DNA from: a virus
Lineage: Duplodnaviria; Caudoviricetes
Strand: one strand, 5' to 3'
Length of the DNA stretch: 64,000 nucleotides
IMG/VR virus record: IMGVR_UViG_3300010883_000022
Location: 1,251 to 65,250 of that record
Under the pieces are notes generated by a model. The model had not been told where the DNA came from, did no database searches, and saw only the letters and a program-made list of their open reading frames with translations. Positions 26,840-52,031 of this stretch are shown here, piece by piece (the first letter of the stretch is position 1; each line of letters begins with the position of its first letter). The translations under genes were made by a program, and so were the position numbers.

Positions 26840-29218
26840 TTATGTTCCCGCAATCGGGCCGAGGTCGACTCCGAGCGATCCTTCTTCTGGATAAGGGTCG
26901 ACGCTCTTCTGCTTAAGGAAGAGCACCAAGTCGCCCATAGATTCAAATGTATTGCGCAAACTATCCTCTAGCTCAGGCATATCAGCTTTGCCATAACGAT
27001 CGCCAAAGTCATCCTGGTGGAAGTAGAACATGAAGAGAATGCGACCAACGCGATCCATCCCCTTCATCAAGTCACCAAGATATTTGTCTACCATGGAATC
27101 CTGTCGAACAGCTTTCAACATAGAGCCAATCATGGCCGTATCAAAAACGTCCTTCTGGCCAAGCTGCGCTGCTTGCTGTGCGCCCTGCATTGCCATCGGA
27201 TCGGGTACTGCCGTCGGATCGTACTGAGAGGGATCTCCGCGATACATATCCGCAACAGGTTGTTCTGCGCTCATGGGGAACTGCGCAGGCACCTGCCCAC
27301 CAATCACATCCGTTGTACCCATCTGTGGCCCCGGGAAGCCTGGCGCCGTCGGGCCTGGCTGCAAGAAGGGATCCTGCGCCTGCTTCACATATTCTGCGTA
27401 CTTCACACGATAACGAGCTTTACGTTGCTGCTCGGCCTCACGCAACATTGCACGCGCCTGCTTCTCGCGGAACCCGTGATCTTTGATCAATGCGATGAAC
27501 GCCTGCTTCGGCTCCATGCGCAGATTGTTAAGCTCTACTTCATAACCACTGTGATAGATAGTCAGCTCGGCCGTCTTGGCCATGATCATCATCTCAGCAT
27601 CAGCAATGTTGCCCGGAGCTAGCGGCTCTTTACTGTCGGAATCAAAATCATCCGCGGGCTTAGCTACCGGAATGGCATAAAAATCTTCCGGAACAAACAC
27701 ATCACCCTGGGAAGCAACTAACTTGGAACCACCTTTACCCTTAAGATGAATTCGCTGTCCGTCTCTATAAGGACTGTATTCGTCATCCCATTCTGCTCGA
27801 CTAAAATCTCGGTGGCCGGCCTCGTAAACAGCGCGCCCACGTTCAGCATGAGTGTGAAAATTAACGTTGTAAACAATTTTGCCGTCTGCATCCCCGATAG
27901 TACTCTCAACACGGAAAGGAACCGTGCACTCACCTGTGCGCCCGCACAGCATATAAGTGCTTCCTTTACTAAGGCTATCAGGAACCGACAACCCCTCGAG
28001 CCAGTCGGTGTACTCATCGCCCTCTACCTTAGAGACCGCCCACACTCGCGTGGGGTGTACGTTGATCCAGTCCTTCTTCCCGCCGCCTTCCGAGCGAACA
28101 AGCGTAGCAAACTTAAACCGCCCATTCGGCCCCATCGGGGCGAGTGCAATAAAACAGCGCTCAATATCACCAGTATTTGTCAGAACCTCGTACAAGCCAG
28201 ACTCAGCTGGGTTGAACAACTTCTTCTCTACCTGCGTATTATAAGCAACGCTGACCTCGTCCCCCGCGCGCTCATCCTTGATTAGAACACCGTCACGCAG
28301 AAGCTTTTCCTGGTCTTCCTCATCAGGGCCCTCGGGGAGCGTTTCCGACCTCGTGTAGTCGATCGTGATGATTTCCAGTGCGCCAGTTTTAATCGGGTGT
28401 GGGATAGTTGTATCGATCACGGAACCGGTACGAGATGTACGCTTACCTGTCGGTTGCGCGGGCGTTAACACATTAGAAGCGTTCTTGTGTAGTTCGCAGG
28501 CTTCCTTGAGTGCGCCAGAAAGTTTATCGCCATATAGCTCAGTCGCCGCCTTAAACACCGACGGGTAGCGATTAGCGACCTCGTACATAAACTTCACAGA
28601 ATTCCCGCCCTCAGCAGCAACCACCGCCGGGAAGGTGCGCATATTTGCAAACTTTTCTTGCTCCGCGGGCGGCGTCGTCGCCATATATGCCCAAACGGGG
28701 AGGAAGTCCTCTACCCATGCAGGGTATGCAGAACTACTCTTCACCCTATTACTTGATAGTTGCTGCAAACTCGGACTCCTCACGCCGAGTTGGTGCGTAT
28801 CCTTATCTGTCCCGTCGCCAAGAATGTTAGGTTTGCGACTAAGGAGATAATTTAACCAGTTCTCCTTGAGGGGCACGAATACATCCTGATCTTTGATGTA
28901 CAAGAGCTCGTGGCCTTTGAGCTCTCCGCGCAGGAAAAAGATGGGCACGTACAGCCACATCGAACCGACCTTGAAGCCTACAACTCCAGCGGCCTTAGTA
29001 TTTTCCTGGTTGCGCTCCAGGAGCTGAAACCCAACCTCAAAATCAAGCAGACTGGGCGCCTTATCTCTTAAGTATGCATGAGCAAGATTACTCAGCGCCT
29101 GTTCAAACGGGATATCCTGCCCATCTCCACCGAGTTCGGCTTGCTTAGCCCACCCGCGCTGTTGATTATTCAGGGACAGTAGACTTTTTTGTGTACTGTG
29201 AGATAGTTGCAAGACCAT
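26840..29218 (-). CDS. Large putative virion protein with K-x-A motifs
   Basis: 792 aa; AKQA, VKSS, EKFA, AKTA, VKYA, VKQA delimit segments. Confidence 0.7.
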   Translation of the reverse strand: MVLQLSHSTQKSLLSLNNQQRGWAKQAELGGDGQDIPFEQALSNLAHAYLRDKAPSLLDFEVGFQLLERNQENTKAAGVVGFKVGSMWLYVPIFFLRGELKGHELLYIKDQDVFVPLKENWLNYLLSRKPNILGDGTDKDTHQLGVRSPSLQQLSSNRVKSSSAYPAWVEDFLPVWAYMATTPPAEQEKFANMRTFPAVVAAEGGNSVKFMYEVANRYPSVFKAATELYGDKLSGALKEACELHKNASNVLTPAQPTGKRTSRTGSVIDTTIPHPIKTGALEIITIDYTRSETLPEGPDEEDQEKLLRDGVLIKDERAGDEVSVAYNTQVEKKLFNPAESGLYEVLTNTGDIERCFIALAPMGPNGRFKFATLVRSEGGGKKDWINVHPTRVWAVSKVEGDEYTDWLEGLSVPDSLSKGSTYMLCGRTGECTVPFRVESTIGDADGKIVYNVNFHTHAERGRAVYEAGHRDFSRAEWDDEYSPYRDGQRIHLKGKGGSKLVASQGDVFVPEDFYAIPVAKPADDFDSDSKEPLAPGNIADAEMMIMAKTAELTIYHSGYEVELNNLRMEPKQAFIALIKDHGFREKQARAMLREAEQQRKARYRVKYAEYVKQAQDPFLQPGPTAPGFPGPQMGTTDVIGGQVPAQFPMSAEQPVADMYRGDPSQYDPTAVPDPMAMQGAQQAAQLGQKDVFDTAMIGSMLKAVRQDSMVDKYLGDLMKGMDRVGRILFMFYFHQDDFGDRYGKADMPELEDSLRNTFESMGDLVLFLKQKSVDPYPEEGSLGVDLGPIAGT

Positions 29219-29315: not shown

Positions 29316-31190
29316 CTATTTCCAACCTTTACTCAAACCAGAGCGCCCAAAGGTCTCGCCAGACATCAAGGAAGGAACATAACTAGTTCCGCTTGTATCG
29401 CTCACATCTCCACGGTGAAGACCTGAAAGTAAGCTACCCTGCCCACGTTTCTGCCTGGCGCCCATCATCCTAGCCGCCCAATCAGGATCGTACTCCAGTG
29501 ATTTTTCTGCTGGACGCATTTCCGGCTGAAATCGCGGAGGCTCGTCATGAACTTCCAGCCTATCAACCCCGAACTGTTTGAAATCTTTCAACATGCTCGG
29601 GCGAATCTTTGTACCAATAGTATAATGCAAGACGGGTCTCTCCAGATACTTTCCTTTTGCCTGGCGGTAATCAATTACCTGACTTCCTGGCCGCGCTTGG
29701 TACTGATTAACAAAGGAACTATACGGAATTATATCACCCGGCACATAGTCACCGACCTCTTCATCTATCCGAACGTGGTCGATCAACCCCCGGGATACCA
29801 GCTCAATATTACGCCTATGCACACTAATTCCCGCGTCAGCGTAGGCATCGCTTAGGCTCCCCACAAGGTACCTGCGCCCTTCTCCGATGCCCTTATGTTG
29901 CACAATTTCTGCCGGATTGGGGACGCCTGCAGAAAGCACATCGCCGGCCTCTACCGTGTCGCCCGGCTTTACATTTACTTGGAGGCCTGGTTTCACGTAA
30001 TGTTGCTCGCCCTGAATCGTTACGTAACTGCCCCCTTGAGGAGCCGCTTCAACCTTTTGTACTTTTCCATCAACTTGGGCATGCGCTGCGCCGTGCTTAA
30101 ATGTCTTGGGAACATTGACCAACTGGTTAATCAACGCAAAACCGCTGACACCTGCGGCAGCTCCCGCTACACCACCAGAGTGCTTAGATGAAATCTGCGC
30201 TTGGGTGAGCGGCTCAGAAACAGCTTGTGCAGCAGCCATTCCTACATAATCACCAATAGGGGATAGCCCACCGCGCTCTCTCGAGCCCACATCCCGCGCA
30301 TAAACACCGCCATCTGCCGGGCCACCTACCAACGGACTCCGGATAAGGATTTGCTTAGTCCCACCCTTCCGCAGCTCCTTCAGAATTTTCTGCGTTAATA
30401 CCGTGTTACGCTTATAACCACCCGCGGGTAATGCAAGAAGTGCGCCCTCGCTATCCATATCATCCGTATCAACGGGTAGTCCCAGTCGCGCAGCACCCGT
30501 TTCTTTATCGTCGTCTAAAGCGCTAACTAACAATCGGTGCGTTGCGCGGTTCATTTGCTTGGCCATGTACCCAGCATCAGCCGTAGCCAACTTAACATCA
30601 GTGATGCCTTTGCGCGCACCGTATGTACTAGCCCAATACTCCACAGGATTTAAACCCTCAGAGTAACTGCTAAGTACTGGGATGGGCAGCGGGCGGTCCT
30701 GGCCGTCCACATATATCCCATCGCCCGCAAGCAATCCGCGCAAGCTCCGCGCGTTGCCGCGGGACCCCGATGCGACCTGGCTCGCGAGGGGATTATTTTC
30801 TCGGGTACTTTCCTGATAAATCGCATCAATGAGCGGTTCGTTAGCGGCACCAACAGCTTTAAGGATCTCTTCGTCTTTGCGCTTATCACTAAGCTTAGGG
30901 TTGCTATGAATAGCGGCAATCTTACGACGAAGCGGTCCGTATGCTTTTTGCGCAGCTAATGATTTGCGCATATGCTTCAAACCAAATGAAGTCCCGCCAG
31001 TAGAGTAAGCAACATCACGACCAACATCGGACAACTCTTTAGCAATCTGACGGTACTGTTCAGGATACTTCTCTGCTACTTCCTGCAACAACGCATCGAT
31101 GCCCTTCTTGTCGAGCTTGCGATTGTAGTCTCGCAAGTTCGCGGGGAGGGTCTCGTTGACCATCAATTGTCCGATAGTTGTATTCAACAT
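29316..31190 (-). CDS. rpoC: RNA polymerase beta-prime C-terminal subunit
   Basis: TTIGQ..N..LP, SGSRG, EGLNPVEYW...GARKG..D...TADAGY (bridge helix), AAQAVSEPLTQ...KHSGG (trigger loop), VHRRNIELV. Confidence 0.92.
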   Translation of the reverse strand: MLNTTIGQLMVNETLPANLRDYNRKLDKKGIDALLQEVAEKYPEQYRQIAKELSDVGRDVAYSTGGTSFGLKHMRKSLAAQKAYGPLRRKIAAIHSNPKLSDKRKDEEILKAVGAANEPLIDAIYQESTRENNPLASQVASGSRGNARSLRGLLAGDGIYVDGQDRPLPIPVLSSYSEGLNPVEYWASTYGARKGITDVKLATADAGYMAKQMNRATHRLLVSALDDDKETGAARLGLPVDTDDMDSEGALLALPAGGYKRNTVLTQKILKELRKGGTKQILIRSPLVGGPADGGVYARDVGSRERGGLSPIGDYVGMAAAQAVSEPLTQAQISSKHSGGVAGAAAGVSGFALINQLVNVPKTFKHGAAHAQVDGKVQKVEAAPQGGSYVTIQGEQHYVKPGLQVNVKPGDTVEAGDVLSAGVPNPAEIVQHKGIGEGRRYLVGSLSDAYADAGISVHRRNIELVSRGLIDHVRIDEEVGDYVPGDIIPYSSFVNQYQARPGSQVIDYRQAKGKYLERPVLHYTIGTKIRPSMLKDFKQFGVDRLEVHDEPPRFQPEMRPAEKSLEYDPDWAARMMGARQKRGQGSLLSGLHRGDVSDTSGTSYVPSLMSGETFGRSGLSKGWK

Positions 31191-31214
31191 CCGTGTTTAC
31201 CTATCAACGACTAC

Positions 31215-31601
31215 CTACGCTTGGAACGAACTTCCGCAACCGCATGACTTAACAGCATTTGGATTTTCGAAAGTGAACCCCCGTTTGTCTAGTCCGTCGT
31301 GCCAATCAATAACCGTACCATCTAGGTACAGGGCGCTCTTCTTATCAACGACGACATCAACACCATGCTGGGTGTACCTATTGTCGGCTGATTTATCAAA
31401 TTCAGATTCGAATTTGAGCGAATAACTGAATCCGCTACATCCGCCGCCTTCTACACCGACTCGCAAGAAGGTTGCCGCATCGAGTACGATCTGCAGGAAG
31501 ATGGCGTCGGCTGGTGCCTGGGCCATCAGGGCAGCATTGACCTGGTCTGTCTTAACTTTTGTGACTTCTGCCGCTGCTTTTTCCGTTATAGAAACTGGCA
31601 T
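31215..31601 (-). CDS. iscA: A-type Fe-S carrier (IscA/HesB family)
   Basis: [40 protein letters not shown]. Confidence 0.93.
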
Positions 31602-31604
31602 AAT

Positions 31605-32177
31605 TTATGCACTTCCCCAGCTATTAAATACTGTTGTATATGGTTTCAAATGGTCAATAATATCTTCGAGCATCAGGACATCAGAAATACACTTCTTAGT
31701 AATCTGGTCCATCGCTTTTTTATCGCCGTCAAGAATGGCCCGTAACCAAACCTGACCATCCACATTCTTTTTCTGATTAACTCCCAGCACAGATGCGATG
31801 CGCTCTAGGCTGTTGTAGCCCAACCTCAAACTTTTGCGCGCGATCTTTACCGGATCTACAATCTTAAAATCAGGCAACGGCGGAAGATCGTTAACTAACA
31901 ACCTGGTACGCAAGAAAGGCAGATCGAAATCTACCCCGTTATGCGCTACCAAGATGTCGTACTTCTTCAACTCATTTGCTACTGCTTCAACAATCTTCGA
32001 ATCATCCGACCGGGCTTTCGCCCAGTTTGGATTCAACTTATCAGCTCGAAACACTGTAGGCTTCTTAAACGGTGTCTTGATAACAGCCGCCAGAATAATC
32101 CCAAAATCTGCCTGTAACGAACTACACTCTAGATCAAAGCACGCAGATCCAATCATATGCCGCTTTGTGCCACTCAT
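31605..32177 (-). CDS. DEDD/RNase H-like 3'-5' exonuclease (YprB-like)
   Basis: FDLECS, VAHNGVDFDLPFL, CISDV. Confidence 0.85.
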   Translation of the reverse strand: MSGTKRHMIGSACFDLECSSLQADFGIILAAVIKTPFKKPTVFRADKLNPNWAKARSDDSKIVEAVANELKKYDILVAHNGVDFDLPFLRTRLLVNDLPPLPDFKIVDPVKIARKSLRLGYNSLERIASVLGVNQKKNVDGQVWLRAILDGDKKAMDQITKKCISDVLMLEDIIDHLKPYTTVFNSWGSA

Positions 32178-32208
32178 ATAAGTTCCCTCGCTTCCTTGCT
32201 CAGTACAT

Positions 32209-32448
32209 TTATGGCCTAATACGCGGAGATATATCTACCTCGTCCACTAGGACAGTTTTATTAACCCCCAATGATTCAAGTAATGAATTGAAGTCCTTAT
32301 CTCCAACCTGCGACGTATAGTACGCACCTGGATGAAATTCAACTATCAACGAAAGTGGGTTACCAGTTTCTTCATCATATACGACAACCCGGGTAGTTTT
32401 TACCTTTAAAGGCTTGCCGTTCTCATCAAATAATTCTGCACGTAACAC
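32209..32448 (-). CDS. Hypothetical protein
   Basis: 79 aa, tightly packed in operon. Confidence 0.65.
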   Translation of the reverse strand: MLRAELFDENGKPLKVKTTRVVVYDEETGNPLSLIVEFHPGAYYTSQVGDKDFNSLLESLGVNKTVLVDEVDISPRIRP

Positions 32449-32450
32449 AC

Positions 32451-33227
32451 TTATTGACCCCGACTATTCGCATTACGCGCCATCTGTGCAAGTGCCGCAG
32501 TCCTATTAAAAATATCCGCTGCAGAAGGGGATATGCGCGCTTCACCAGTAGAACCAGTAAACGGCGAACCAACTGTTGGTACCCCTGACAACTCTTCAGA
32601 AACCTTAAGCATGTCACCACCGCCGCCGCCGTCGCCCATCGGAGGCCCGCCTCCGGCTTCAGGGCCCATTGGCATTGCTGGTTGAATTGCCTCGATCGGT
32701 TTGATCGCACTGCCTGGACCGGCAAGATCTACTGGCGGCGCCTCCAGGCCGTCAGCACCTTCGGGAGCCGTAGTGCCTTCCGGTGGCGGACCAAGCAAAG
32801 CTTCCGGAGGTAAACTAACGCCCATCGCGTTAGAAATGGCAACAATCAGCTTTTCCATGTTGTACAGCTTGGTGTTCAATTCTTCCGGATCAAATTTCTT
32901 TGCCTTGGCTCCGGCAGGACCCATAGCTCCGACGCCACCGCTGACGCCGGCATTAGAAAGCTCCTCCTGAATAATACTCCTAACATCCTCCGTAGGCGGA
33001 GGCGGCGGAGCATCCATTGGCGGCTCCATCGGAGGAGGTCCGCCCATTGCGGGATCACCGCCCATTGGAGGTCCACCCATTGGAGGTCCACCCATTGGAG
33101 GTGCGCCGCCCATTGCGGGATCACCGCCCATTGCGGGATCACCGCCCATGGGTCCGCCGGGAGGAACAATCCCCTGTTTCTCAAGCTGCCATGTTGCGAG
33201 CTTCAAAAGTTCTCTATTAATACCCAT
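32451..33227 (-). CDS. Pro/Gly/Met-rich low-complexity virion/scaffold-like protein
   Basis: GDPAMG/GPPMG repeats (about 33035-33155); LKLA, EKQG, LKVS. Confidence 0.7.
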   Translation of the reverse strand: MGINRELLKLATWQLEKQGIVPPGGPMGGDPAMGGDPAMGGAPPMGGPPMGGPPMGGDPAMGGPPPMEPPMDAPPPPPTEDVRSIIQEELSNAGVSGGVGAMGPAGAKAKKFDPEELNTKLYNMEKLIVAISNAMGVSLPPEALLGPPPEGTTAPEGADGLEAPPVDLAGPGSAIKPIEAIQPAMPMGPEAGGGPPMGDGGGGGDMLKVSEELSGVPTVGSPFTGSTGEARISPSAADIFNRTAALAQMARNANSRGQ

Positions 33228-33238
33228 TTCAAGGTCTC

Positions 33239-36200
33239 CTAACCGTTTAATATTGTTACTTGCTGACCTGCATCAATTTCACCACGGCGATAAGCACGAA
33301 TAGCCTCTGCCTTTGAAGAAAAAGTTCTAGGGCCTTTTCTATTCTTCTTTGTAGAGGCTGCGTACAAACCACCTGTATATTCCTGAGACGGCTTGTAATG
33401 CACATTAAAATCACGCGCTGAAAACAAATTACGAGATGGCATTAGTTTGTTAATCGCCTCGTCCACTGCACTTGATGATACAGGTACATGATACTGCATT
33501 GCATCCCCGTCAAAATCTGCGTTAAAACCCCCGACAATAAGCGGGCTTACCTGCATTGTGTCATTTTTTACCAGCTGAGGCCAGAAAGCCATAACACCAT
33601 ACCGATGAAGTACCGGCGCACGATTAATGACAACAGGACGCTTAGACATAATTTTGAGCAACTCTTTGCGCGCAACAGCAGAGCGATCCTTTACCGCACG
33701 TGCTGCATCTAACTTGGGAATACCGCGCCTACCCAGATCTCTAATAATAAGCGGCTGATAAACCTCCCACGCTTTTTCCTCAGGTATCCCAACTTGATCC
33801 ATATCCAAATCAGGATTAGGCGTGATAGCTGCCCTACCTACTAAGTCGGTCGTATTGCTCAGTAGCTTTCTTTGCACAACGCTGTATTTTGGATTTTTAC
33901 CGAAAACTTCCCGAAGGATCCCGCGAACTTGTTTTTCTTGAGCATCACTACTAATAGGATCTCCCAAACCCGTTACTGCTTTAAATGCATCATAAACAGA
34001 TAGCCGTTCTTCACCAATATCATCAGATTTCTTAGCGTTCTCGCGTAGAAACTTATTGGCTTCAAACAAATCTCGGTACAAGTAATTCGTGTCGGAAACC
34101 AGCTGGTTTCCTGAGCCTTGCATAACACTTATTGGACGAAATGCAGGGGGCAACACGGGTGCACGAGAAAGCATCCAATCCCGCGGATGTAGCTTCTGTT
34201 TCTCTGCGCCTTTAAAGTATCGCAAACGCTTCACAGCAGCATTACGCTTCTCACCTTTACTCGACTTGACATCTTCTCGCGCCTGCGCTGTTGCCTGCTT
34301 CAAGTTTATCTTATCCAACGCATGCGCAATTGCGCGAGAACCTGTCTGCCCCTGGAATTCTTGCTTACCGGATAAGATATCCCGGAAATTAGATTCCGTA
34401 AGCCCCAGCACGCGCATGATAGGTTCTTGCATTGCTGGGTTTGGCATAGGCTCAGCAAGACGAATAAACGACCACTTATTGCCACCGTGCCCGCCCGTCG
34501 CCGAAGGATCAAACAAACCACCCTTTAACGGCTTTAGACCCTGCTTCCAGTCGACAGTGTTGGAACCCGTAATCTCTCTATCGCCGGCTAACTTGGTTAC
34601 ATCTGCCTCCGTCATAGCCAACAGATGAGTGCGCGTTCCCTTCCGAACTGGGTTGATTCCCGCCGCCCGCAGCTGATTCACAAATTTCTCATAAACCATG
34701 GGAACCTTTGGTGTCGCGGGCTTGAACCCCGCCTGGAATGCCGACCAGTAATCAGGATTCATTTGTCCCCGAATCATCTTCGCGTCCCTGATAACCTCAG
34801 TAGCGCCATGCGAAAGCAACGCGTTAAGCTCAAGCATTCCAATCGTCTTAGCACCTTCCTCGCCACCTTTAGACGGACGCCCCTCTGACGTGTATCCCCC
34901 AAAGCTACGCCCTGTTCCCTTAGACTCGGCAACGTGGTGCAATTTCATGAAAAAGCGATTACCAACAAAGACATCATTAATCTGGCGCCCGTTAGTGGGG
35001 TCCGTAATCGTTTCCAGATCCTGTATATCATTTGCTTCAAGTTCGCGCATTGCGAACTCGGTGAGGTCTTCAATATTTTCAAAATCCTGGATCTTATATG
35101 GCTTCCCCGTCCGCTCTGCAATTTTACCAAGCGCCGCTTCTATCATTTGCGCAGGATTAGTTCGGCTAATAATACCGAGCGGATTTAACAATAGTTCAGA
35201 AGAACGACCATCAGCCGCTACGGGCATTTCTTCATCTGGAATGATCTCAGAGATAACGCCCTTATCACCGTACCTACCTGAAAGCTTATCGCCCACTTTT
35301 GCCGTAGCCGTAGACTTAACCGTAACTAGGATTCCGTGCTTGGTTTTGGCAACATCTGTGACAATGCCGGGCGCATGGTGGGACCACATTTGGGTTTTAT
35401 CAATGTACTTGGGGGCCCGCCCACGGGAGACCTGGTTAGCTGTCCGTTCTCGTTCTCGGACAACAAGTGCCAACGGATCTCCGCTGTTGACGGTCGTTCC
35501 TGGTTTAATGACTCCGTCATTGTCCATTTTCTCCAAAGTAGTGCGATCAAATTTGCCAGGAAACATAGCGGTGAAACCAGCCTTGCTAGTCCGCACCTTT
35601 TCCTCAGAAAAATCGACCGTGGTCTTGTACATATGTTGCGAAGACAACCGGTTAGCAAACGATTCACTAATAACAACGGCATCCTCGAAATTAAGGCCGC
35701 GAAATGGAACGTATGCTACACGTGCATTTAACCCAAGAGCCGTCGTTCCCTTGTCGTCTACGAAATTAGACTTAGCTAACAATGCGCCCTTCGGAAACCG
35801 CTGCCCCTTCTGAACAACAACATCCTGATGAATATACGTTTTACGGTTATATGGATAGTTGTCGTACAGCTCTATCGTCTCAACAGCACCGTTACCATAT
35901 TTAACAGTGATCTCATCTTTATCGACCTTCGTAACAACCCCGCCATGCTTTGCGCGAACGGCGCCCATTTTAGTTCCATACCGATTTTCAAAACTATCAT
36001 CCTCACCCGGAATACCCGCTTGAACCAACGGAGCTTCCGCATTATCCAGCGGGAGTGCTTGCGTTAACATCCTGGCCGCCATCACAGATCTCTGCGCCTT
36101 AGTTGCCGATTTCATCGGGATCATATTGGCAAGAAAAGAAAAAGCGCCCTCCATATGCGGAACCTCGTAATCAACCGCGTGAGGAGACACGTGCCGAACA

Positions 36201-37693
36201 GTGCCGCCAGACATGGCAGCTACCCGTGATTTACCCGATCGCAGCTCTCCTGGAAAAGCCACAACAGAAGACGTAATAGTCTCCGGGTCTCGCCACACCG
36301 TTTCACCGCTGCGAACATCTCGCATCTTTGTGTAAATCTTACCGTCCCGTCCTTTACGCGCATTACCCGCCATACGAAGATCGACGCCCGCACGCTCTGA
36401 CTCAGGGGTTATGATCGGATCAATGAAACCAAAGTGGCTGGACTGAACATTCCGCGCTTCCGCGGGCACACCACGTGCGCTCTGAATGCCGCCATCGCCC
36501 ATCTTTGAAACACGGCTTTGCTGCTCAAAGATTTGCGCAGGATTGATCCCTTCCAACGGCTGCGCCAGAGAACCAAACAACACCGAATCCAGGCTCTTAT
36601 TCATCAAGCCCGTACCAATACTCTGCACGTTTTTCTTAGATGTGGCTTTCCAAAGTGCGCGGTTAAGCAAACCTTTATTCTTGCCAATACGCTCTGCAAG
36701 CAAATCCTCAGGACCCAAAAAACGCATGAACGCCAAGGAGTCCCGATCATCAACCTCGGCCGGGTCTAATCCCAATTTAGCTAGTACAGCTGGATCCGCT
36801 CTATTCTGAATAGCCAATAGCTTCCGAGTACTAGCAAGTAAACTTTCAACAGTTACTCGCTTAGTTGGTTTACCCAGCGTCCGCTCTGTTGTTGCGGGAT
36901 CCAACTCCATCTTTGCAAATGCCTTAGCAATTGCTTCCTGGCGAGATCGCGCGTCCGTATCAACACCGCCGAGAACAAACTTCTTATAGATCTTCGCCAA
37001 GTCCGCTGGAGACGCCTTTTGCATATTCGCCGAGGCGAGCTCGCCCCAAGCTGTCTGTAGTTCCTTATCCGTCGCGCCCATTGCGCGGAGAATAGAAATC
37101 AAGGGGATATTCGCGTTACCTACGTTCGCCTTAAAAAGGCCCGTTGCGGGGTCCAAATGGATACGATGCGATAAACCCGTACCAGGCTTTACGTTTATGC
37201 TGGATTCAAGCTCGCCGTTTTCTTTTTCCCGATGATAAACTCCGGGTCGCAGTCGCATTTGATTAGACAACGTATACTCATTGCCGTTGCGGATAAACGT
37301 GCCGCGGCTAGAAAAGTAAGGCACCTGCGCAACCGTTGCGCGCTTATTATCAAGCACCGTCCCGGAAGCATTATCAACTAGCTGCCAAGTACCGCGTAAA
37401 CTACGGCGCAGGTTACGTTGCTCCAAAAGCGCGCGTTTTTGATCAGCGAGAGAAATTTCCTTCTCATCGTCGTCGTAATCTACGTCAACAAGTTGTAACG
37501 TATGCGTCTGGTTAGAAACTGGTTCAATCGCGCGCGCAGCTGCTCGCACATTTTCATAAATGCCGCGCCGCACCGCCGCAGAATCCCCAAATTCTCGAAG
37601 GCCTGCGGGCGCACGAGAGGAAGGCGCCAACGGCTTCGCGGGTGGTGTCACCAACGACGGGGGCGGATTGCGGGGATCAAGTACACTTGGCAT
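33239..37693 (-). CDS. rpoBC: RNA polymerase beta fused to beta-prime N-terminal half
   Basis: Beta: GTFIRNG, HFGFIDPIITPES, NFEDAVVIS, GDKLSGRYGDKG, NPLGIISRTN, MKLHH. Beta-prime: VLPPAFRP, NRAPVLHR, NADFDGDAM. One uninterrupted frame. Confidence 0.95.
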   Translation of the reverse strand: MPSVLDPRNPPPSLVTPPAKPLAPSSRAPAGLREFGDSAAVRRGIYENVRAAARAIEPVSNQTHTLQLVDVDYDDDEKEISLADQKRALLEQRNLRRSLRGTWQLVDNASGTVLDNKRATVAQVPYFSSRGTFIRNGNEYTLSNQMRLRPGVYHREKENGELESSINVKPGTGLSHRIHLDPATGLFKANVGNANIPLISILRAMGATDKELQTAWGELASANMQKASPADLAKIYKKFVLGGVDTDARSRQEAIAKAFAKMELDPATTERTLGKPTKRVTVESLLASTRKLLAIQNRADPAVLAKLGLDPAEVDDRDSLAFMRFLGPEDLLAERIGKNKGLLNRALWKATSKKNVQSIGTGLMNKSLDSVLFGSLAQPLEGINPAQIFEQQSRVSKMGDGGIQSARGVPAEARNVQSSHFGFIDPIITPESERAGVDLRMAGNARKGRDGKIYTKMRDVRSGETVWRDPETITSSVVAFPGELRSGKSRVAAMSGGTVRHVSPHAVDYEVPHMEGAFSFLANMIPMKSATKAQRSVMAARMLTQALPLDNAEAPLVQAGIPGEDDSFENRYGTKMGAVRAKHGGVVTKVDKDEITVKYGNGAVETIELYDNYPYNRKTYIHQDVVVQKGQRFPKGALLAKSNFVDDKGTTALGLNARVAYVPFRGLNFEDAVVISESFANRLSSQHMYKTTVDFSEEKVRTSKAGFTAMFPGKFDRTTLEKMDNDGVIKPGTTVNSGDPLALVVRERERTANQVSRGRAPKYIDKTQMWSHHAPGIVTDVAKTKHGILVTVKSTATAKVGDKLSGRYGDKGVISEIIPDEEMPVAADGRSSELLLNPLGIISRTNPAQMIEAALGKIAERTGKPYKIQDFENIEDLTEFAMRELEANDIQDLETITDPTNGRQINDVFVGNRFFMKLHHVAESKGTGRSFGGYTSEGRPSKGGEEGAKTIGMLELNALLSHGATEVIRDAKMIRGQMNPDYWSAFQAGFKPATPKVPMVYEKFVNQLRAAGINPVRKGTRTHLLAMTEADVTKLAGDREITGSNTVDWKQGLKPLKGGLFDPSATGGHGGNKWSFIRLAEPMPNPAMQEPIMRVLGLTESNFRDILSGKQEFQGQTGSRAIAHALDKINLKQATAQAREDVKSSKGEKRNAAVKRLRYFKGAEKQKLHPRDWMLSRAPVLPPAFRPISVMQGSGNQLVSDTNYLYRDLFEANKFLRENAKKSDDIGEERLSVYDAFKAVTGLGDPISSDAQEKQVRGILREVFGKNPKYSVVQRKLLSNTTDLVGRAAITPNPDLDMDQVGIPEEKAWEVYQPLIIRDLGRRGIPKLDAARAVKDRSAVARKELLKIMSKRPVVINRAPVLHRYGVMAFWPQLVKNDTMQVSPLIVGGFNADFDGDAMQYHVPVSSSAVDEAINKLMPSRNLFSARDFNVHYKPSQEYTGGLYAASTKKNRKGPRTFSSKAEAIRAYRRGEIDAGQQVTILNG

Positions 37694-37708: not shown

Positions 37709-38806
37709 TCAGACGGACGCCGAAATGGGCTCGTCTTCTTTTTCTTCATGCAAAACCTCCGCACCCGGAGTGAGGTAAATCGGCTGAGGGCGTCGGCGAG
37801 CTAAATCAGCTTTGCGTCGACGCATTGCTTCACTTAGCGGGCTCTTGCTGCGCGATTTGTTACGCGTCCAGTTATACGCCATCATTCCTGTAGGTATTCC
37901 AGAAATTGCAGCCATCATAGTGAGCAATCCCCCATACTGCTTAAGGCCCTTAGTGATGTCTCCGGTGGTAACATTTTCTAGACCACCAAGATTAGGCTGC
38001 GGAAACTCGATTCTTGGTACCTCCGCCAGCTTAACAAAACCAGCGTACAGTTCGTCCAACGACGAGCCTAATACGGAAGCTTCCTTACTCGCCTCAAATT
38101 GCTCTGCAATAGCCGTTTCATATTCGTCTTTGGCATCTCGTACAGCTTCTTCCCGCAACCGCTTTCTACGGCGCGAAGCAAGGTAATCACCCAGAGCATT
38201 TCCGCCCCAAAAACCACCCAAGCCTAAGCCAACCATCGCGGGCCATTTGGCTATGGGAGCCGAATCACTGCCCAACCACGAGGTCTCGGCCTCTAGCTTG
38301 TTCGCTTCATTATATGGGCTCGCTGATTGCTGTGCGGCTTTATCCAGCCGATCTTCTTCATCCTCTTCCGGTTTCCGCCGACTAACAAATTTACGTTGCG
38401 GTACCGAAAGCTCCATGGGCAGGGAAGATGTGCCAGCTCCCGCCATTTGCGCCACACTCGGACGCCTTAAGGCTTTGACTAACGAAGCTCCGCCGCCAAG
38501 CAACGCCGCCCCGCCGCCCACCGCAAGAAGCTGCATCAGGTTTTTGTTGTACAGCAACTCTGGGTCGCTCAGGATAGTCGACGGAGTCGTCTCGTAAAGC
38601 AGACTAGATTCTTTGCGCATATCCTGCGCGTGCTTAATCAAGTCCGGAGCAATGTCGATGTAAAGGCGCTCGTTTGCAAAAGAGCCCCCCGTCGCCTCGG
38701 ACTGCTTGCGCATATCCTGCGCATGCTTGATCAAATCCGGAGCAATATCAATGTAAAGGCGCTCATCATCGATTGAGGCGGACTGTTTGTGTATTTGTTT
38801 CTGCAT
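37709..38806 (-). CDS. Glycine-zipper internal virion protein with duplicated N-terminal tag
   Basis: ERLYIDIAPDLIKHAQDMRK x2; three Gly-rich hydrophobic helices; no Cys. Confidence 0.65.
   Translation of the reverse strand: MQKQIHKQSASIDDERLYIDIAPDLIKHAQDMRKQSEATGGSFANERLYIDIAPDLIKHAQDMRKESSLLYETTPSTILSDPELLYNKNLMQLLAVGGGAALLGGGASLVKALRRPSVAQMAGAGTSSLPMELSVPQRKFVSRRKPEEDEEDRLDKAAQQSASPYNEANKLEAETSWLGSDSAPIAKWPAMVGLGLGGFWGGNALGDYLASRRRKRLREEAVRDAKDEYETAIAEQFEASKEASVLGSSLDELYAGFVKLAEVPRIEFPQPNLGGLENVTTGDITKGLKQYGGLLTMMAAISGIPTGMMAYNWTRNKSRSKSPLSEAMRRRKADLARRRPQPIYLTPGAEVLHEEKEDEPISASV
38613..38764 (-). repeat. 59-nt coding duplication, period 93 nt
   Basis: Copies 38613-38671 and 38706-38764; 5 differences, all synonymous. 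Confidence 0.95.
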
Positions 38807-43657: not shown

Positions 43658-44128
43658 TTACTTTACCACGTCTATAGTCATATTCTGAACATTACTAGTA
43701 ACCCGCGTAACCCGGGTTACTCCCATACGAAAAAGAGTTGCTTCAAGCCAGGGAAAACTCAGGGAAATATGATGAAAATTGCCGGGATAATCCTGCCCCC
43801 CGTTAATGATCTTTGACAATCTTTCCCAACTTATCTCACCTGACTTTGCTTGATGAAAATACGTCGTACATATCTTCTCTATATCCGGAGTCTTGATAAG
43901 CAAACGGCCGCCCGGTCGTAAAACTCGCAGCCACTCGGCTAATGCTTTCTCATACTCATAAATACTGAAATGCTCAATAATGTCGAGCGCTACAACTTCA
44001 TCCACACTCTCGTCAGCATAATCCAGATTCCGCACATCTCCGCGCACAACACCGGGAATGTCCCGCTCATCTATGTTGATATACCCTTCCTTGATGTCAG
44101 GGCCGCAGCCCACGTTAAGCTTAAGCAT
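43658..44128 (-). CDS. Class I SAM-dependent methyltransferase
   Basis: LNVGCG, DIIEHF, RVLRPGG. Confidence 0.88.
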   Translation of the reverse strand: MLKLNVGCGPDIKEGYINIDERDIPGVVRGDVRNLDYADESVDEVVALDIIEHFSIYEYEKALAEWLRVLRPGGRLLIKTPDIEKICTTYFHQAKSGEISWERLSKIINGGQDYPGNFHHISLSFPWLEATLFRMGVTRVTRVTSNVQNMTIDVVK

Positions 44129-44130
44129 GC

Positions 44131-44790
44131 TTACAATCCCCCCAAGTACTGATCTCCGGGGATCTCCTTATGCGGTTGCCAGGTGCTATCGCCCCGTCTC
44201 CAACCTATATGTAACGTAGTTCCCGGCAAAACGTAAAAAGAAAAAGCGCTATCAAGACGAGCCATAGCCCCGATAATGTGCCAATCATATTGCTGATTTC
44301 GCGGTAGTGGGCGTAATTTCTGCCAATCTTCAGTGCGCATCACAGCTGTACCAGCAGTGCATTTCTTCTTAATGATCCACTCACGACCATGCACTGTAGT
44401 GCGCCCGACCTCTGCATGGTCTGTACTGTTATGACCTTTAGCTAGAAAACACGATGGGTTCTCTTTGAGCATTCTGATGTAAGTGCTAAGCGGCTCTAAA
44501 TACATGAAATCATGGTCGGTAGTAAGGATGTACTTATACAACTCATCGACGTTATCAGGGATGGCGTCTTGATACCCGCCGCCAATATTTCTATTGGTGT
44601 CGAAAAGGGTTTTCTCCACACCTTCTATGTTATTGATAACAGAAACTGTCTCAGCATTTGATCCGTTATCAATAATATGAATGTCTGCCGTAATAACATC
44701 CTCAGCAATGCGCGCCTTTAATGACTCCACCGTCTGCACTAGAAAGTCCGGGCGATTCCAGGAGATGACGTAGATACCTAAATCCTTCAC
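44131..44790 (-). CDS. GT2-like glycosyltransferase
   Basis: VISWNRP, IIDNGS, TDHD. Confidence 0.78.
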   Translation of the reverse strand: MKDLGIYVISWNRPDFLVQTVESLKARIAEDVITADIHIIDNGSNAETVSVINNIEGVEKTLFDTNRNIGGGYQDAIPDNVDELYKYILTTDHDFMYLEPLSTYIRMLKENPSCFLAKGHNSTDHAEVGRTTVHGREWIIKKKCTAGTAVMRTEDWQKLRPLPRNQQYDWHIIGAMARLDSAFSFYVLPGTTLHIGWRRGDSTWQPHKEIPGDQYLGGL

Positions 44791-45386
44791 GGTAAAGTCC
44801 TATCCACCAAGTGAGCTTGAAACGCTTCAAACCGCTCACAAAGTTCAAAAGGACCCCTATGATACATGCGCGGTGGATACGCATAACAATTACTAATCTG
44901 ATCATCTGCCAACAATCGCACTAGCTCTATACTACTGTGAACAAACCCCGGAAGGATGCAACTAAGCCGCCCATACAGATCAAACGAGGTATCAGCTGCG
45001 AAGACAGGGTAGGTCGTCTTACTAATGATGGGGCCTGCGTCAAAATTCTCCACCATCTTGTGAAAAGTGATGCCCTGCTCCCTATCCCCGTTAACAAGCG
45101 TGTGCGCCAAGATATCCAGGCCCCCATAATCAGGAAGAAGGCCGGTGTGCACGTTGTACGCGTTCTCGATGTCAACCAGTTTGCGATCCCACTGAATTGA
45201 CAACTTGATGTCGTGCTCAACATCAAAACTATCTAATACAGGTAACGAGATGTTCCCCGGGAATGCCGGACTTCTAGACGGGACATAGCCCACCAAGTTA
45301 TAGAAGCCCGCGAGGTGCTCAACCACAAGTTCGGTGAGATAAGATGATCCCAGGATGATTATTTTGTAATCCATTACTAACTCCAC
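44787..45386 (-). CDS. Sugar N-formyltransferase (Fmt-like)
   Basis: NVHTGLLPDYGG, GITFHKM..FDAGPII. Confidence 0.85.
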   Translation of the reverse strand: MELVMDYKIIILGSSYLTELVVEHLAGFYNLVGYVPSRSPAFPGNISLPVLDSFDVEHDIKLSIQWDRKLVDIENAYNVHTGLLPDYGGLDILAHTLVNGDREQGITFHKMVENFDAGPIISKTTYPVFAADTSFDLYGRLSCILPGFVHSSIELVRLLADDQISNCYAYPPRMYHRGPFELCERFEAFQAHLVDRTLP

Positions 45387-45390
45387 GCAA

Positions 45391-46515
45391 CTACCAACCC
45401 TCTTTTATACAGTCAACGATATGCTGACGATCCTCGTCGCTTACCCACCAACCACAAGGAATACAAATCATGTCCTGACTAAGTATATCCATACTTGGCA
45501 GCGCCGCACGAAACTCTTTAAGACAATGATGCTTATCGTTTCGATCGTGCACCTGACTAACACCAATGCCGCACCCCTTCATCTTTTTAACGAAGCCCGG
45601 ACGGCCGCTCACGCGCAGTGTATACACCCAGTACGATGATGACCTATCTGAACTAGTTTCCAGCAGCTGAACACCAGGAGTACCAGCCAACTGCTCATCG
45701 AAAAACTGCCCGTTACTGCGATGATGTGCCACCAACTCAGAAACATGCGGAAAGTTACACAAACCAATAGAGGCGTTCACATCATTCATATGATACTTGA
45801 ACCCCCACTCCTCGATATTCTGCTCGCAGCGGAAATCAAGGCTTCGAGTCCTATCCAACCCGTACCACCGCAACCTTTTTGCGCGCTGATGCTCTTCATA
45901 GCTCGGTGACACAAGTAAGCCACCGTCTACCGTCGTGAAGTGCTTGATAGCCTGGAAGCTGAAGCAGCACGCATTCCCATGATTGCCCAGCAGCTTATCC
46001 TTGTACGTTGCGCCCCACGCATGTGCACAGTCTTCTATGACTGTAGGATAAAACCCGTAAAGATCCTGACAACGAATCTGCAGTTCCTTAAGTGCATCCA
46101 AATCACAGGGGTACCCACCCCAGTGCACAACCATGATAGCCTTGGTCTTAGGACTCAGCTTCCTAGCCAAATCATTTAAACACATATTACAAGTGCCCGG
46201 ATCAACGTCGACCCAGCGAAGGCGCGCCCCTGTTGCAAGGATCGCAAAGTTGGTGGCTGTGCAGGTCAACGGAGTAGTTAGCACCTCGTCGTCCGGCCCC
46301 AGGTCACACATGTGCGCAGCAAGCGTTAACGCCGATGTGCCGCTGTTAAGCGTATTCAAATACGGCGTACCCAGGTAATCAGACAACGTAACTTCAAACT
46401 CTTCTACCCGAGGCCCCTGCCCAATATATCCGGACAAAAGCGTATCAGAGACTGCGCTCGAAACGTCCTCCGACATAAAAACTTTGAACAAGGGAATATT
46501 CTTTTCCGACGCCAC
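45391..46515 (-). CDS. DegT/DnrJ/EryC1/StrS PLP sugar aminotransferase
   Basis: NSGTSAL, IEDCAHA, FSFQAIKHFTTVDGG. Confidence 0.93.
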   Translation of the reverse strand: MASEKNIPLFKVFMSEDVSSAVSDTLLSGYIGQGPRVEEFEVTLSDYLGTPYLNTLNSGTSALTLAAHMCDLGPDDEVLTTPLTCTATNFAILATGARLRWVDVDPGTCNMCLNDLARKLSPKTKAIMVVHWGGYPCDLDALKELQIRCQDLYGFYPTVIEDCAHAWGATYKDKLLGNHGNACCFSFQAIKHFTTVDGGLLVSPSYEEHQRAKRLRWYGLDRTRSLDFRCEQNIEEWGFKYHMNDVNASIGLCNFPHVSELVAHHRSNGQFFDEQLAGTPGVQLLETSSDRSSSYWVYTLRVSGRPGFVKKMKGCGIGVSQVHDRNDKHHCLKEFRAALPSMDILSQDMICIPCGWWVSDEDRQHIVDCIKEGW

Positions 46516-46517
46516 AA

Positions 46518-47405
46518 CTACGCCCCTCCCAAGATATGAAAACCACCGGAATCCCGCTCACAAGTAGATGCCGGCGCAAGTCCCAACAACTGCCCGCGTT
46601 CAAGTTGAACCTGATGACCCATGATTGCGCCTATGGGTAATTCAGCCGGAGCAAACACAAGTGGGCGCGGTATAAGAGAGTTATCCAAGTAGATAATGTT
46701 CTTCTCAGCCGTTGTCGGATTCCTCGTACAATGCATAAAAGAAATACAATAATCAGCAGACATGCTGCGGATACTCAGTCCTTTATTAGCAAAAGATCTT
46801 AAGTATCCCACCTGTGTCGCCGGGCCCTCCCGCATAACATCTGGCGGTAGATGGAAAGAACCACCGTACTTGTTAAATAGGTCAACGTTAATAAGCCCAA
46901 TAGAGCAAGCAGCATGCGGTCCCCACTTAGAAGGATCCAACCAATGTCCAACACAGATTAAAACTGATTCCTTATCTACATCAGTTGAATAGCTGTAGGA
47001 CAACCATTCCTTGTCAAAGCCACGCATGACTGGAAGATAGTCATCTTCAAAAAGAAATGCGAAGTTAATACCTTCACAATGTTGCTGAAGCGCGAGATTC
47101 CACCCACCGTAAGACCAGTGCGCGGGATTTTGCTTACTAAAAACAACGGTCGGGATGCCCGTTTCCTGCTCAAAAGCAGCAGCCTTATCCTCCAAGAGAA
47201 GGAAGTGCTCTTCGTGGCCCGGGTCTAGACTGCAAACAAGGACTACCTTGTCCAGACAAGTGGCATATCTACGAAGAGCCTCGAGATACGTATCCGCGTG
47301 GCAACGTGCATGACTGTGATTAACACGATTGTGCGCGCCATCATATGACTCTGGCCTACCAAAATAGACCGCACAAATATACGCCACACGGTTTCCTTGC
47401 CACAT
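46518..47405 (-). CDS. Putative glycosyltransferase-like protein
   Basis: SYGGW, FLFEDDY; glycan cassette context. Confidence 0.55.
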   Translation of the reverse strand: MWQGNRVAYICAVYFGRPESYDGAHNRVNHSHARCHADTYLEALRRYATCLDKVVLVCSLDPGHEEHFLLLEDKAAAFEQETGIPTVVFSKQNPAHWSYGGWNLALQQHCEGINFAFLFEDDYLPVMRGFDKEWLSYSYSTDVDKESVLICVGHWLDPSKWGPHAACSIGLINVDLFNKYGGSFHLPPDVMREGPATQVGYLRSFANKGLSIRSMSADYCISFMHCTRNPTTAEKNIIYLDNSLIPRPLVFAPAELPIGAIMGHQVQLERGQLLGLAPASTCERDSGGFHILGGA

Positions 47406-47407
47406 AC

Positions 47408-47893
47408 TTAAGGGGCTCCATTTTTAATACTCCACGCAATTGCGCGAAATATGTTAACAGCTGCCGCCCGCTTCTCCGCAGACAGCTGAACATCTTCGAG
47501 CCCCAAATGCTCCTCGAGAACCGCGTCCTTTACTGCACCGAACCCAGGGTACTTACCAACAAGTTCCGTACGCTGCAACATCAGCTTCTCTGCCCGCATA
47601 AAGCCTTCTCGGATCGTGCCGGTTGTCTTTATGATATCAGTGTCACGATCGATGACGTCCGCAAAGTCGGCATAAAACTGCGCAGTGTCAGCGGCATCTA
47701 CGGGATCAGAAATAAGACCCCGTAAAGCTTTCGTGGCCTCTTTAAGCTCTGCAGTCGGCTCAGCTATTTCCGTACGATAGTGCCCATCATGCAAAGCCGG
47801 GGGCGGATCAGGCTCCGAGTTCCTGGGAAACAAACAACCCGGGCACGTCAAAACAACCAACAACAATAACGACATAGTATTGCGTAGCATCAT
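47408..47893 (-). CDS. Predicted lipoprotein
   Basis: LLLLVVLTCPGC lipobox-like N-terminus followed by a Pro linker. Confidence 0.65.
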   Translation of the reverse strand: MMLRNTMSLLLLVVLTCPGCLFPRNSEPDPPPALHDGHYRTEIAEPTAELKEATKALRGLISDPVDAADTAQFYADFADVIDRDTDIIKTTGTIREGFMRAEKLMLQRTELVGKYPGFGAVKDAVLEEHLGLEDVQLSAEKRAAAVNIFRAIAWSIKNGAP

Positions 47894-48303
47894 AAGAAAA
47901 AGACTCCCTGCTCTTTACCTGCGGGCGGGTCGACGGAACCTTCCGCCACAGGTTCTCGCTTGGTTATAGTAGCGCCGCCCTGCATCACCAACCGCAGCGT
48001 TGCCATCACCTCATGATTAGCTTGCATACGTTCCGCAAGACGATGCAGCGCACTCAGATCCTTCCGCGCCTCAGCATCAATAAACTGAGAATCAAAAGAA
48101 ACTACTTGCGAATCTAGGACAGGACGCAGTGTAAGCCCCCAACACACAGCGGCCACGCCAGCAGCTATACACGCGCCGGCCTGCGCCAACCAAGTAGCTG
48201 TGGGGACGTCACCACCAGCCCTAACAGCAATGGCGATTACCGCGTAGTTTACAAGAACAACTCCAACAACCATCAGCAGTGGAGACAGTCTCTTTTTAGA
48301 CAT
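47890..48303 (-). CDS. Two-TM membrane protein
   Basis: Two N-terminal hydrophobic helices. Confidence 0.65.
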   Translation of the reverse strand: MSKKRLSPLLMVVGVVLVNYAVIAIAVRAGGDVPTATWLAQAGACIAAGVAAVCWGLTLRPVLDSQVVSFDSQFIDAEARKDLSALHRLAERMQANHEVMATLRLVMQGGATITKREPVAEGSVDPPAGKEQGVFFL

Positions 48304-48324
48304 TAACGCACTTTCCTTTGATTC

Positions 48325-48561: not shown

Positions 48562-48580
48562 TTGAAGATCTCCTTGACTA

Positions 48581-49774: not shown

Positions 49775-49781
49775 ATCTGAA

Positions 49782-50765: not shown

Positions 50766-50796
50766 CCTTGAATTCTCCTTTAACTTCCATGTTATG

Positions 50797-52007: not shown

Positions 52008-52031
52008 GAGCACCTCCCTGTGCATATAGAC

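Follow-up and report, generated by a model that had tools for sequence, protein, structure and literature searches.

Organisation of the locus

The DNA analysed here is a stretch of 64,000 nucleotides, called the window below, from a tailed phage (Caudoviricetes) in the IMG/VR record IMGVR_UViG_3300010883_000022. The record is 65,250 bases long and 31% complete by CheckV, and the window is everything in it past base 1250. Nearly every open reading frame (ORF) of the window is on the minus strand. Two of these ORFs encode an RNA polymerase (RNAP) of the bacterial multisubunit type which contains no cysteine and neither of the zinc sites of β′, and it is this enzyme that is considered here. Its genes are listed in Table 1, together with their neighbours and other features referred to later.

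Table 1. Genes of the RNAP locus and other features of the window
Feature	Positions	Strand	Length (aa)	Cysteines	Basis or remarks
Fused β + β′-N RNAP subunit	33239-37693	-	1484	0	Pfam, PDB phmmer
β′-C RNAP subunit	29316-31190	-	624	0	Pfam Rpb1_5, β′ alignments
ORF upstream of β-β′N	37709-38806	-	365	0	Conserved position
ORF just downstream of β-β′N	32451-33227	-	258	0	Conserved position; 18 Met
Small ORF	32209-32448	-	79	0	Weak orthologues in two relatives, with 1-2 Cys there
DNA-polymerase-exonuclease-like ORF	31605-32177	-	190	3	Between the RNAP genes
phrog_17776 ORF	31215-31601	-	128	3	Between the RNAP genes
Gene directly downstream of β′-C	26840-29218	-	792	4	Normal cysteine content
Head-maturation (prohead) protease-like, C-terminal helical domain	16101-17543	-	480		Homologue of Arash gp222
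Aminotransferase-like	45391-46515		374	16	
Glycosyltransferase-like	54503-56458		651	14	
Methyltransferase-like	56458-58983		841	17	

The larger protein is a fusion of β with the N-terminal part of β′ (β-β′N), and the smaller is the C-terminal part of β′ (β′-C). Pfam finds the domains Rpb2_3, Rpb2_6 (187.6 bits), Rpb1_1 and Rpb1_2 (80.4 bits) in the large subunit and Rpb1_5 (90.2 bits) in the small one, and the β and β′ domain scores of both exceed the curated cut-offs. Searches of solved structures with phmmer align residues ~100-1010 of the large subunit with β (E 1e-65) and residues ~1090-1480 with β′ (E 1e-52), while the small subunit matches the C-terminal half of β′ (E 3e-40). The catalytic FNADFDGD motif of the double-psi β-barrel (DPBB) is found in the large subunit. 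The break in β′ lies about 80 residues past NADFDGD, and the large subunit aligns with cyanobacterial γ subunits; this is the point at which β′ is divided in cyanobacteria (γ/β′) and, after the DPBB domain, in jumbo phages, the latter site being described in the available part of a review (PMC7598289). We conclude that the enzyme is a bacterial-type multisubunit RNAP cut down to two chains, β-β′N and β′-C.

At its N-terminus (~35 residues, window 37589-37693) the large subunit is proline-rich and weakly conserved among 40 homologues, up to a conserved R..FGD motif. A targeting sequence or a cleaved propeptide is conceivable here.

Absence of cysteine from the polymerase

Neither subunit contains any cysteine, in 1484 and 624 amino acids (aa) respectively; the ORFs, their boundaries and the zero counts given in an initial annotation of this DNA were all reproduced. 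Two proteins totalling 2108 aa would lack cysteine by chance with a probability of 9.4e-13 if cysteine were as frequent as in the non-RNAP proteins of the window (1.30%; the greedy ORF set of the whole window has 240 cysteines in 20,500 aa), 4.4e-8 at the frequency in Salmonella rpoB and rpoC (22 cysteines in 2749 aa, these being 7 in β and 15 in β′, which were mapped to the window proteins), and 1.9e-7 at 0.73%, the rate of the cysteine-poor block that occupies the left part of the window.

The absence is conserved among relatives. A word-index search with the large subunit listed 120 proteins, counting the query (P0001), of which 106 are of normal length and 51-87% identical. Among these 106, cysteine is absent from 100, present once in four and twice in two, giving 8 cysteines in 156,375 aa. 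The corresponding set for β′-C comprises 121 proteins, namely the query and 120 listed, and all 114 of normal length lack cysteine (0 in 72,145 aa). Over both proteins, identities of the normal-length homologues range from 51 to 96%. Several homologues have marine or freshwater metagenome source names.

At least 527 IMG/VR stretches encode a relative. From these, 80 loci were fetched as an independent sample, and removal of 9 duplicates left a non-redundant set of 71. Among the subunits of standard length in this set, cysteine is absent from 44 of 50 β-β′N and from 40 of 46 β′-C proteins; the ORFs of this set begin at the first possible start, and some of the few cysteines may sit in false N-terminal extensions. 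The remaining ORFs of the same 71 loci have 1.40% cysteine. Relatives at just 39-45% identity (L064, L067, L084, L090, L103) are likewise cysteine-free. The absence of cysteine from this RNAP is selected, and is not due to chance.

It is worth adding that in longer homologues cysteine is confined to inserts. Inserts are present in 14 large subunits, where 149 of the 150 cysteines are inside the insert and the last one is at an insert border, and in seven β′-C subunits, where the figure is 22 of 23; taken together, 171 of the 173 cysteines of insert-bearing homologues lie within inserts. Most of the inserts are intein-like, typically with Cys or Ser as the first residue and N as the last; one, in P0239, is a C-terminal fusion (PF00293 in the search listing). 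Wherever the alignment places the border of an insert cleanly (after the final N), the next residue is Ser or Thr, and never Cys. The purge therefore acts on the mature protein and not on the DNA.

Inteins are frequent in this family, many relatives having one or two in the RNAP genes, at several sites. They are ~340-410 aa long, or ~170-190 aa in the case of mini-inteins, and were seen among homologues P0011-P0108 and P0151-P0240 and in loci L066, L070, L072, L078-L081, L083, L086 and L102; splicing would leave the product free of cysteine. Separately, three relatives have β′-C with a fused C-terminal extension of 600-830 aa (L057:12997-16623, L061:13062-16781, L107:13844-18205). These extensions are cysteine-free and mostly of low complexity, rich in Pro, Ala, Thr and Gln, followed by helical sequence, and in the three relatives they show no similarity to the 792-aa neighbour of β′-C or to gp217 or gp218 of Salmonella phage Arash.

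Zinc sites

In the alignment with Salmonella rpoC, the window protein passes from GGLFDPSATG to WSFIRLAEP with a gap in place of the ligands of the first zinc site (C70, C72, C85 and C88). Three relatives show this gap as well, and so does gp206 of Arash. At the second site, alignment by phmmer to 8k60_D and by MAFFT gives C814 replaced by D, C888 by G, C895 by Y and C898 by D, and the motif that replaces the site is kept across the clade. Elsewhere, rpoB C559 is replaced by D (FIDPIITPE), rpoC C454 by V (PLIVGGFNADFDGD) and rpoC C58 by D. The initial annotation had described the β′ zinc ribbon as deleted, the second site as lost and other conserved cysteines as replaced, and all of this holds.

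Among annotated phages, the nearest to the window are Arash, which infects Salmonella, and the Vibrio phages D69, D181 and D148, which have the fused architecture and are about 25-31% identical; Arash (OQ632216) is the closest cultured relative, at 31%, and D69 is at about 25%. As in the window, the enzymes of Arash (gp206/gp216) and D69 (VPHD69_0261/0264) consist of a β-β′N of ~1525 aa and a β′-C of ~606 aa, lack the first zinc ribbon, and are nearly purged of cysteine, with 5 and 6 in ~2130 aa. The difference is in the second zinc site, where Arash and D69 retain all four ligands and the window's clade has none. There is one cysteine in the 1525 aa of Arash gp206 and two in the 1527 aa of D69_0261, while gp216 and D69_0264 have exactly four each, aligned to the four ligands. 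The same four-cysteine pattern is seen in the IMG/VR lineages L104/L105 and L106. The family therefore exists in two states, with the second-site cysteines alone or with none, and the alignments suggest an order of loss in which the dispensable cysteines went first and the last zinc site later, in the clade of the window.

Polymerase complement and sigma factor

Two relatives are close to complete, G001 (224.5 kb, 100%) and G002 (219 kb, 98%). These two genomes and Arash have one place matching the β family PF00562 and one β′-C ORF each, and no second RNAP set was found in any of the three, unlike in phiKZ. The two genes encode the sole RNAP of a tailed phage of ~200 kb. Given a single set, this enzyme must be active in the cytoplasm as well, at least during late infection. 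The α (PF01000) and ω (PF01192) subunits were found in none of four records (the window's record, G001, G002 and Arash), with controls positive in 14 of 14 genomes.

In the 65-kb record of the window, 31% complete, no factor of the sigma70 family was found, and Sigma70_r2 was not found in that record or in G001 or G002. G001 does encode a 254-aa Sigma70_r3 protein (30.7 bits) with one cysteine, homologous to Arash gp10, its gene lying among homologues of the Arash virion proteins gp13 and gp14. Arash and D69 also encode a sigma-like factor. Since relatives encode such a factor, the enzyme is probably sigma-dependent.

Virion data from Arash

Mass spectrometry (MS) of Arash virions has been published, and the following figures are from the available part of that report (PMC10585845). 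The most-detected protein is gp206 (128 unique peptides, 3516 spectra), and β′-C, gp216, is also well represented (40 unique peptides, 1210 spectra), as are the helicase gp217 (38 unique peptides) and the sigma factor gp10 (24). Enzymes that look like carry-over, namely primase, ligase and the helicases gp193 and gp197, have 2 unique peptides each. A second sigma factor, gp196, is not in the list, and gp218 was found in virions. Cysteine follows a similar division. The well-detected proteins have 4 in 606 aa (gp216, all of them zinc ligands), 0 in 472 (gp217), 0 in 234 (gp10) and 0 in 1097 (gp4), in contrast to 3 in 345 for the undetected gp196 and 13 in 532 for TerL.

The gene of gp217 (L001:26067-27485), a DNA helicase without cysteine, lies directly after that of β′-C in Arash and has no counterpart after the β′-C of the window. 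A further difference is that the Arash portal gene is immediately upstream of the RNAP.

Comparison with other phage polymerases

The initial annotation had drawn a parallel with the injected RNAP of phage N4, which is correctly described as cysteine-free: gp50 has no cysteine in 3500 aa, and neither do gp51 (644 aa) or gp52 (150 aa), while the N4 replication enzymes have 1.1-1.4%. In the available part of a survey of 191 Schitoviridae, cysteine suppression is conserved in the ejection operon, and an earlier suggestion is cited that relates it to passage through the periplasm (PMC11445570). The virion RNAPs (vRNAPs) of N4 and other Schitoviridae resemble the window enzyme in that an ejected RNAP is wholly without cysteine and is accompanied by cysteine-free ejection proteins encoded next to it. 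They differ in that N4 gp50 is a single-subunit, T7-like enzyme of ~3500 aa from a podovirus, not homologous to β or β′. The window proteins match Rpb1 and Rpb2 domains only and have no T7-like homology, so that, as judged from sequence, the resemblance is functional and not ancestral.

The vRNAPs of phiKZ and AR9 are, like the window enzyme, β/β′ homologues without α or ω in which β′ is split after the DPBB domain. The virion copy of phiKZ has no recognisable cysteine pattern of the first zinc site and is half as cysteine-rich as the non-virion copy. These phages differ from the window's clade in having two RNAP sets, each of 4-5 polypeptides, and no sigma70-type factor; the clade has one set, with β fused to β′-N, and a sigma70-like gene in relatives. 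Phage multisubunit RNAPs encoded with replication genes keep both zinc sites and have ordinary cysteine contents (16 in 1127 aa for RHph_Y65 β′, 16 in 1998 for YerA41).

Two other groups are similar in some respects. The mReC contigs (Weinheimer & Aylward 2020, PMC7481178), as described in the available part of that paper, are metagenomic tailed-phage contigs, some of more than 200 kb, whose β and β′ are recognisable by hidden Markov models of the cellular proteins; there are 97 of them, and their capsids matched PF07068. This T4-type capsid family was found in none of the four records searched here (window, G001, G002, Arash), but the control was also silent. The gp66 of crAss-like phages is, from the available text, a virion-packaged RNAP built on a two-barrel catalytic core, its gene being next to those of further packaged proteins; unlike the window enzyme it is a single, highly divergent chain not recognised by β/β′ models (10.1101/2020.03.07.982082). 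The available text on gp66 does not discuss cysteine. Within the limits of the literature searched, no published cysteine-free or zinc-free multisubunit RNAP was found. The words cysteine, zinc, virion and sigma appear nowhere in the text of the mReC paper (PMC7481178), and neither the Arash paper (PMC10585845) nor the jumbo-phage RNAP review mentions cysteine or zinc. What is already known is that cysteine is suppressed in ejected phage proteins, and that multisubunit RNAPs can be carried in virions.

Neighbouring genes

The window, L008, L009 and L010 share the gene order ~334-aa ORF, β-β′N, ~240-aa ORF, small ORFs and β′-C. A gene for ~800 aa follows β′-C in the window, L008 and L010 only; in L009 a long cysteine-free extension of β′-C is found there.

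The two ORFs that flank β-β′N are themselves depleted in cysteine. The upstream ORF, with a median of 334 aa in 60 IMG/VR loci, has 35 cysteines in 20,449 aa (0.17%) and none in 43 of the 60; it evolves fast, its alignment is poorly conserved, and a word-index search with the 365-aa window protein found 3 proteins only. The downstream ORF (58 loci, median 240 aa) has 55 cysteines in 15,445 aa (0.36%) and none in 41 of the 58; the 258-aa window protein is of low complexity, rich in Pro, Ala and Gly, with a helix rich in Met and Gln. Neither has a match to a known family in PHROGs or Pfam, and searches of the ESM Atlas gave scores of at most 0.85 and unnamed clusters. We regard the 365-aa protein as a candidate for a co-packaged or RNAP-associated protein, and the 258-aa protein as a candidate internal virion or co-packaged protein. 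The idea that the two might be α-like subunits was dropped, the alignments being of low complexity or poorly conserved.

Of the four small ORFs that separate the RNAP genes, the two at 31215-32177 contain cysteine and are not parts of the RNAP; different small ORFs take their position in relatives.

The 792-aa gene directly downstream of β′-C behaves quite differently from the RNAP. Its 39 orthologues have 329 cysteines in 31,389 aa (1.05%), with 7-9 in most, and since this immediate neighbour keeps its cysteine, a regional compositional effect is excluded. Its G001 orthologue weakly matches the Arash virion protein gp218 (tblastn, E 7e-6). A fold search with the 792-aa protein was uninformative, its AlphaFold2 (AF2) model being poor (mean pLDDT 63.6) and the search of BFVD giving one uncharacterised match only.

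About 12 kb downstream of the RNAP, in the same co-oriented block, is the protease-like gene, 43% identical to Arash gp222 by tblastn. Foldseek with its AF2 model (mean pLDDT 87) gave BFVD matches with E from 2.5e-15 to 1e-3, and the named ones among those listed are mostly prohead or head-maturation proteases; a Foldseek search of the PDB gave no match at E <= 0.001. The family, which includes P0245-P0394, has 2727 representatives at E <= 0.001. Many members are ~850-900 aa long and align with the query in two separate parts, as would be expected if they contained insertions, for example inteins. Four cysteines are invariant (C172, C175, C186 and C191 of the window protein), and this virion-block protein therefore probably keeps a metal site. 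With conserved cysteines in both the 792-aa and the protease-like protein, the proposal that every virion protein in the clade lacks cysteine was rejected.

On a larger scale, cysteine is unevenly distributed along these genomes. In the window it amounts to 0.73% in 1-39.2 kb, the block in which the RNAP lies (RNAP itself excluded), as against 1.83% elsewhere, and in G001 to 0.81% in 53-126 kb as against 2.0-2.5% in three other blocks. The statement of the initial annotation that nearby enzymes have a normal cysteine content is borne out by the aminotransferase-, glycosyltransferase- and methyltransferase-like ORFs of Table 1. These belong to a cysteine-rich run (window 43658-58983) that includes aminotransferase- and formyltransferase-like genes, GT2 and GT92 glycosyltransferases, a PhyH-type dioxygenase and methyltransferases, and that may be a virion-glycosylation or DNA-modification cluster. 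The gene at 49782-50765 encodes a trypsin-like peptidase (Trypsin_2, 56.9 bits) and is flanked by a cysteine-free ORF of 362 aa and a 409-aa ORF with one cysteine.

G001 has a second cysteine-poor block at 187.5-196.1 kb (0.46%). There, beside a portal homologue, is an ORF of 1590 aa with no cysteine (187551-192323 of the contig; L023:7551-12323, minus strand), which has no Pfam or PHROG match and is a candidate for further ejected cargo. The portal homologue (196205-199120; L023:16205-19120, minus strand) has 971 aa, compared with 579 aa in Arash, and a weak intein-splicing match; all of its 15 cysteines are between residues 117 and 560, so that the mature portal, on this arrangement, may also be cysteine-poor.

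The scan of about 50 ORFs of the window and G001 against PHROGs and Pfam was almost wholly silent, the exceptions being the sugar-modifying enzymes, the exonuclease-like ORF, the trypsin-like peptidase and a weak DUF2345 below the cut-off. A scan for promoter and terminator consensus sequences at 26-41 kb found matches at or below the expectation from shuffling, and no tRNAs were found in the window.

Proposed explanation and alternatives

The explanation that we favour, and consider fairly probable, is that the cysteine- and zinc-free character marks an RNAP that is carried in the virion and injected with the DNA. The enzyme would be made late, alongside the structural proteins, and packaged in the capsid with the sigma-like factor and with disordered, cysteine-free partners. 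On infection it would be ejected with the DNA and transcribe the early genes without host RNAP, fresh copies of the same enzyme taking over later. Thiols and Cys4-Zn sites would have been selected out by storage and delivery outside the reducing cytoplasm, in the virion and possibly the periplasm, where a free cysteine or a Cys4-Zn site would be prone to oxidation, mis-pairing or loss of zinc. In the sister lineage, to which Arash, D69 and a number of IMG/VR relatives belong, the second site alone would have survived, and the clade of the window would have gone on to replace it with D/G/Y/D, the outcome being an RNAP that needs no zinc to fold. The position of the RNAP among virion genes, on which the initial annotation also relied, is supported by a few identified genes, the protease-like and gp218-like ones. 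Injection is further favoured by the cysteine-free ejection proteins of N4, by the strong representation of the RNAP in Arash virion MS, by the conserved lack of cysteine in the family and its depletion in the two flanking ORFs, and by the ordinary cysteine content of multisubunit RNAPs encoded with replication genes.

Several observations weigh against injection. Most of the neighbouring genes fit no recognisable family, and the description of the region as a virion module therefore rests on the few just named. The sole experimental link to packaging is Arash, at 31% identity, and the preparation analysed, according to the available part of the report, was not clean: it yielded 116 'virion' proteins, among them ribonucleotide reductase and kinases, and its authors allow that abundant proteins may have been carried over (PMC10585845). 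In those data the RNAP outranks the major capsid protein in spectral count, an odd result for cargo. The second zinc site is retained in Arash and D69, and 17 cysteines remain in the 2856 aa of the injected phiKZ vRNAP, compared with 33 in 2850 aa for the non-virion RNAP (subunit lists from the available part of PMC7618050); neither feature is therefore required for packaging. The N-terminal zinc domain is missing from the non-virion RNAP of AR9 too, as the same available text states (PMC7618050), and zinc-site loss is therefore not specific to virion enzymes. Lastly, the single RNAP set of the complete relatives leaves room for a non-packaged role. For these reasons the word 'signature', which the initial annotation had applied to the loss of cysteine and zinc, is too strong, and its interpretation as a whole is partly supported. 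Strong suppression of cysteine serves well, though not in every case, to indicate virion cargo; loss of a zinc site alone does not indicate it.

A related explanation, which we consider rather unlikely, accepts packaging but holds that the driving force is complete unfolding of the enzyme during passage through the tail, followed by refolding without zinc or chaperones, oxidation being secondary. The long, low-complexity β′-C tails of 600-830 aa and the disordered-looking flanking ORFs would fit a threaded cargo, and it is only in the window's clade that both zinc sites are missing. However, the Cys4 second site is retained in Arash, D69, L104 and L106, and phiKZ vRNAP retains cysteine, from which it follows that ejection does not demand a zinc-free enzyme.

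That the RNAP is not packaged at all, but acts only inside the cell and has lost cysteine and zinc through oxidative or thiol-reactive stress in the host, scarcity of zinc in oligotrophic waters or escape from a host factor directed at the zinc domains, is in our view distinctly improbable. It draws on the cytoplasmic role that a single RNAP set implies for at least the late stage of infection, on the loss of the first zinc domain in the non-virion AR9 enzyme (from the available part of PMC7618050), on the evident cytoplasmic enzymes in the available Arash MS list and, as regards scarce zinc, on the marine or freshwater metagenomes from which several homologues come. Zinc economy, however, explains the loss of ligands and not the purge of every non-ligand cysteine, and Arash and D69 purged nearly all their other cysteines yet kept the zinc site. 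Other enzymes of these phages have 1.4-2.5% cysteine, so that no general intracellular pressure is visible, and the pattern is like that of the N4 ejection proteins. In addition, the cysteine-free set of Arash, in the MS data available, coincides with the proteins best detected in virions.

Chance, or a generally low cysteine content of phage proteins, has practically no prospect of being right: the proteins of the virion block are cysteine-poor overall and several other window ORFs have no cysteine, but the probability is very small even at the block rate, the character is present in more than 200 diverged homologues, cysteine is confined to inteins, and the adjacent gene keeps its cysteine.

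Significance

The phages that carry the window RNAP are probably myoviruses like Arash. We suggest, as a quite possible but tentative extension of injection of the enzyme, that a large, widespread clade of ~200-kb environmental phages (at least 527 IMG/VR stretches) packages and injects a complete but minimal, sigma-directed RNAP of two chains, with no α, ω, zinc or thiol, which is the phage's only one and serves both early, as the injected enzyme, and late, as newly made copies. To our knowledge, the β′ zinc sites are regarded as universal in multisubunit RNAPs. A natural family without both sites and without any cysteine implies that the zinc sites are dispensable, and the window enzyme would provide the first natural example of a multisubunit RNAP that folds and functions in the absence of both, with the Arash-type relatives, which have the second site only, as an intermediate step. 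Such a compact RNAP may refold well and tolerate oxidation, and would be suited to structural and in-vitro work.

The rule of cysteine suppression, described so far for ejection proteins of N4-like phages, would at the same time come to include a polymerase of cellular type in large phages. Depletion of cysteine would then be a simple marker, requiring only sequence, for injected cargo in uncultured phages; it also flags the two ORFs that flank β-β′N and, in relatives, the 1590-aa protein and the long β′-C tails. The prediction that follows from the proposal is that these abundant environmental phages would begin infection independently of the host RNAP.

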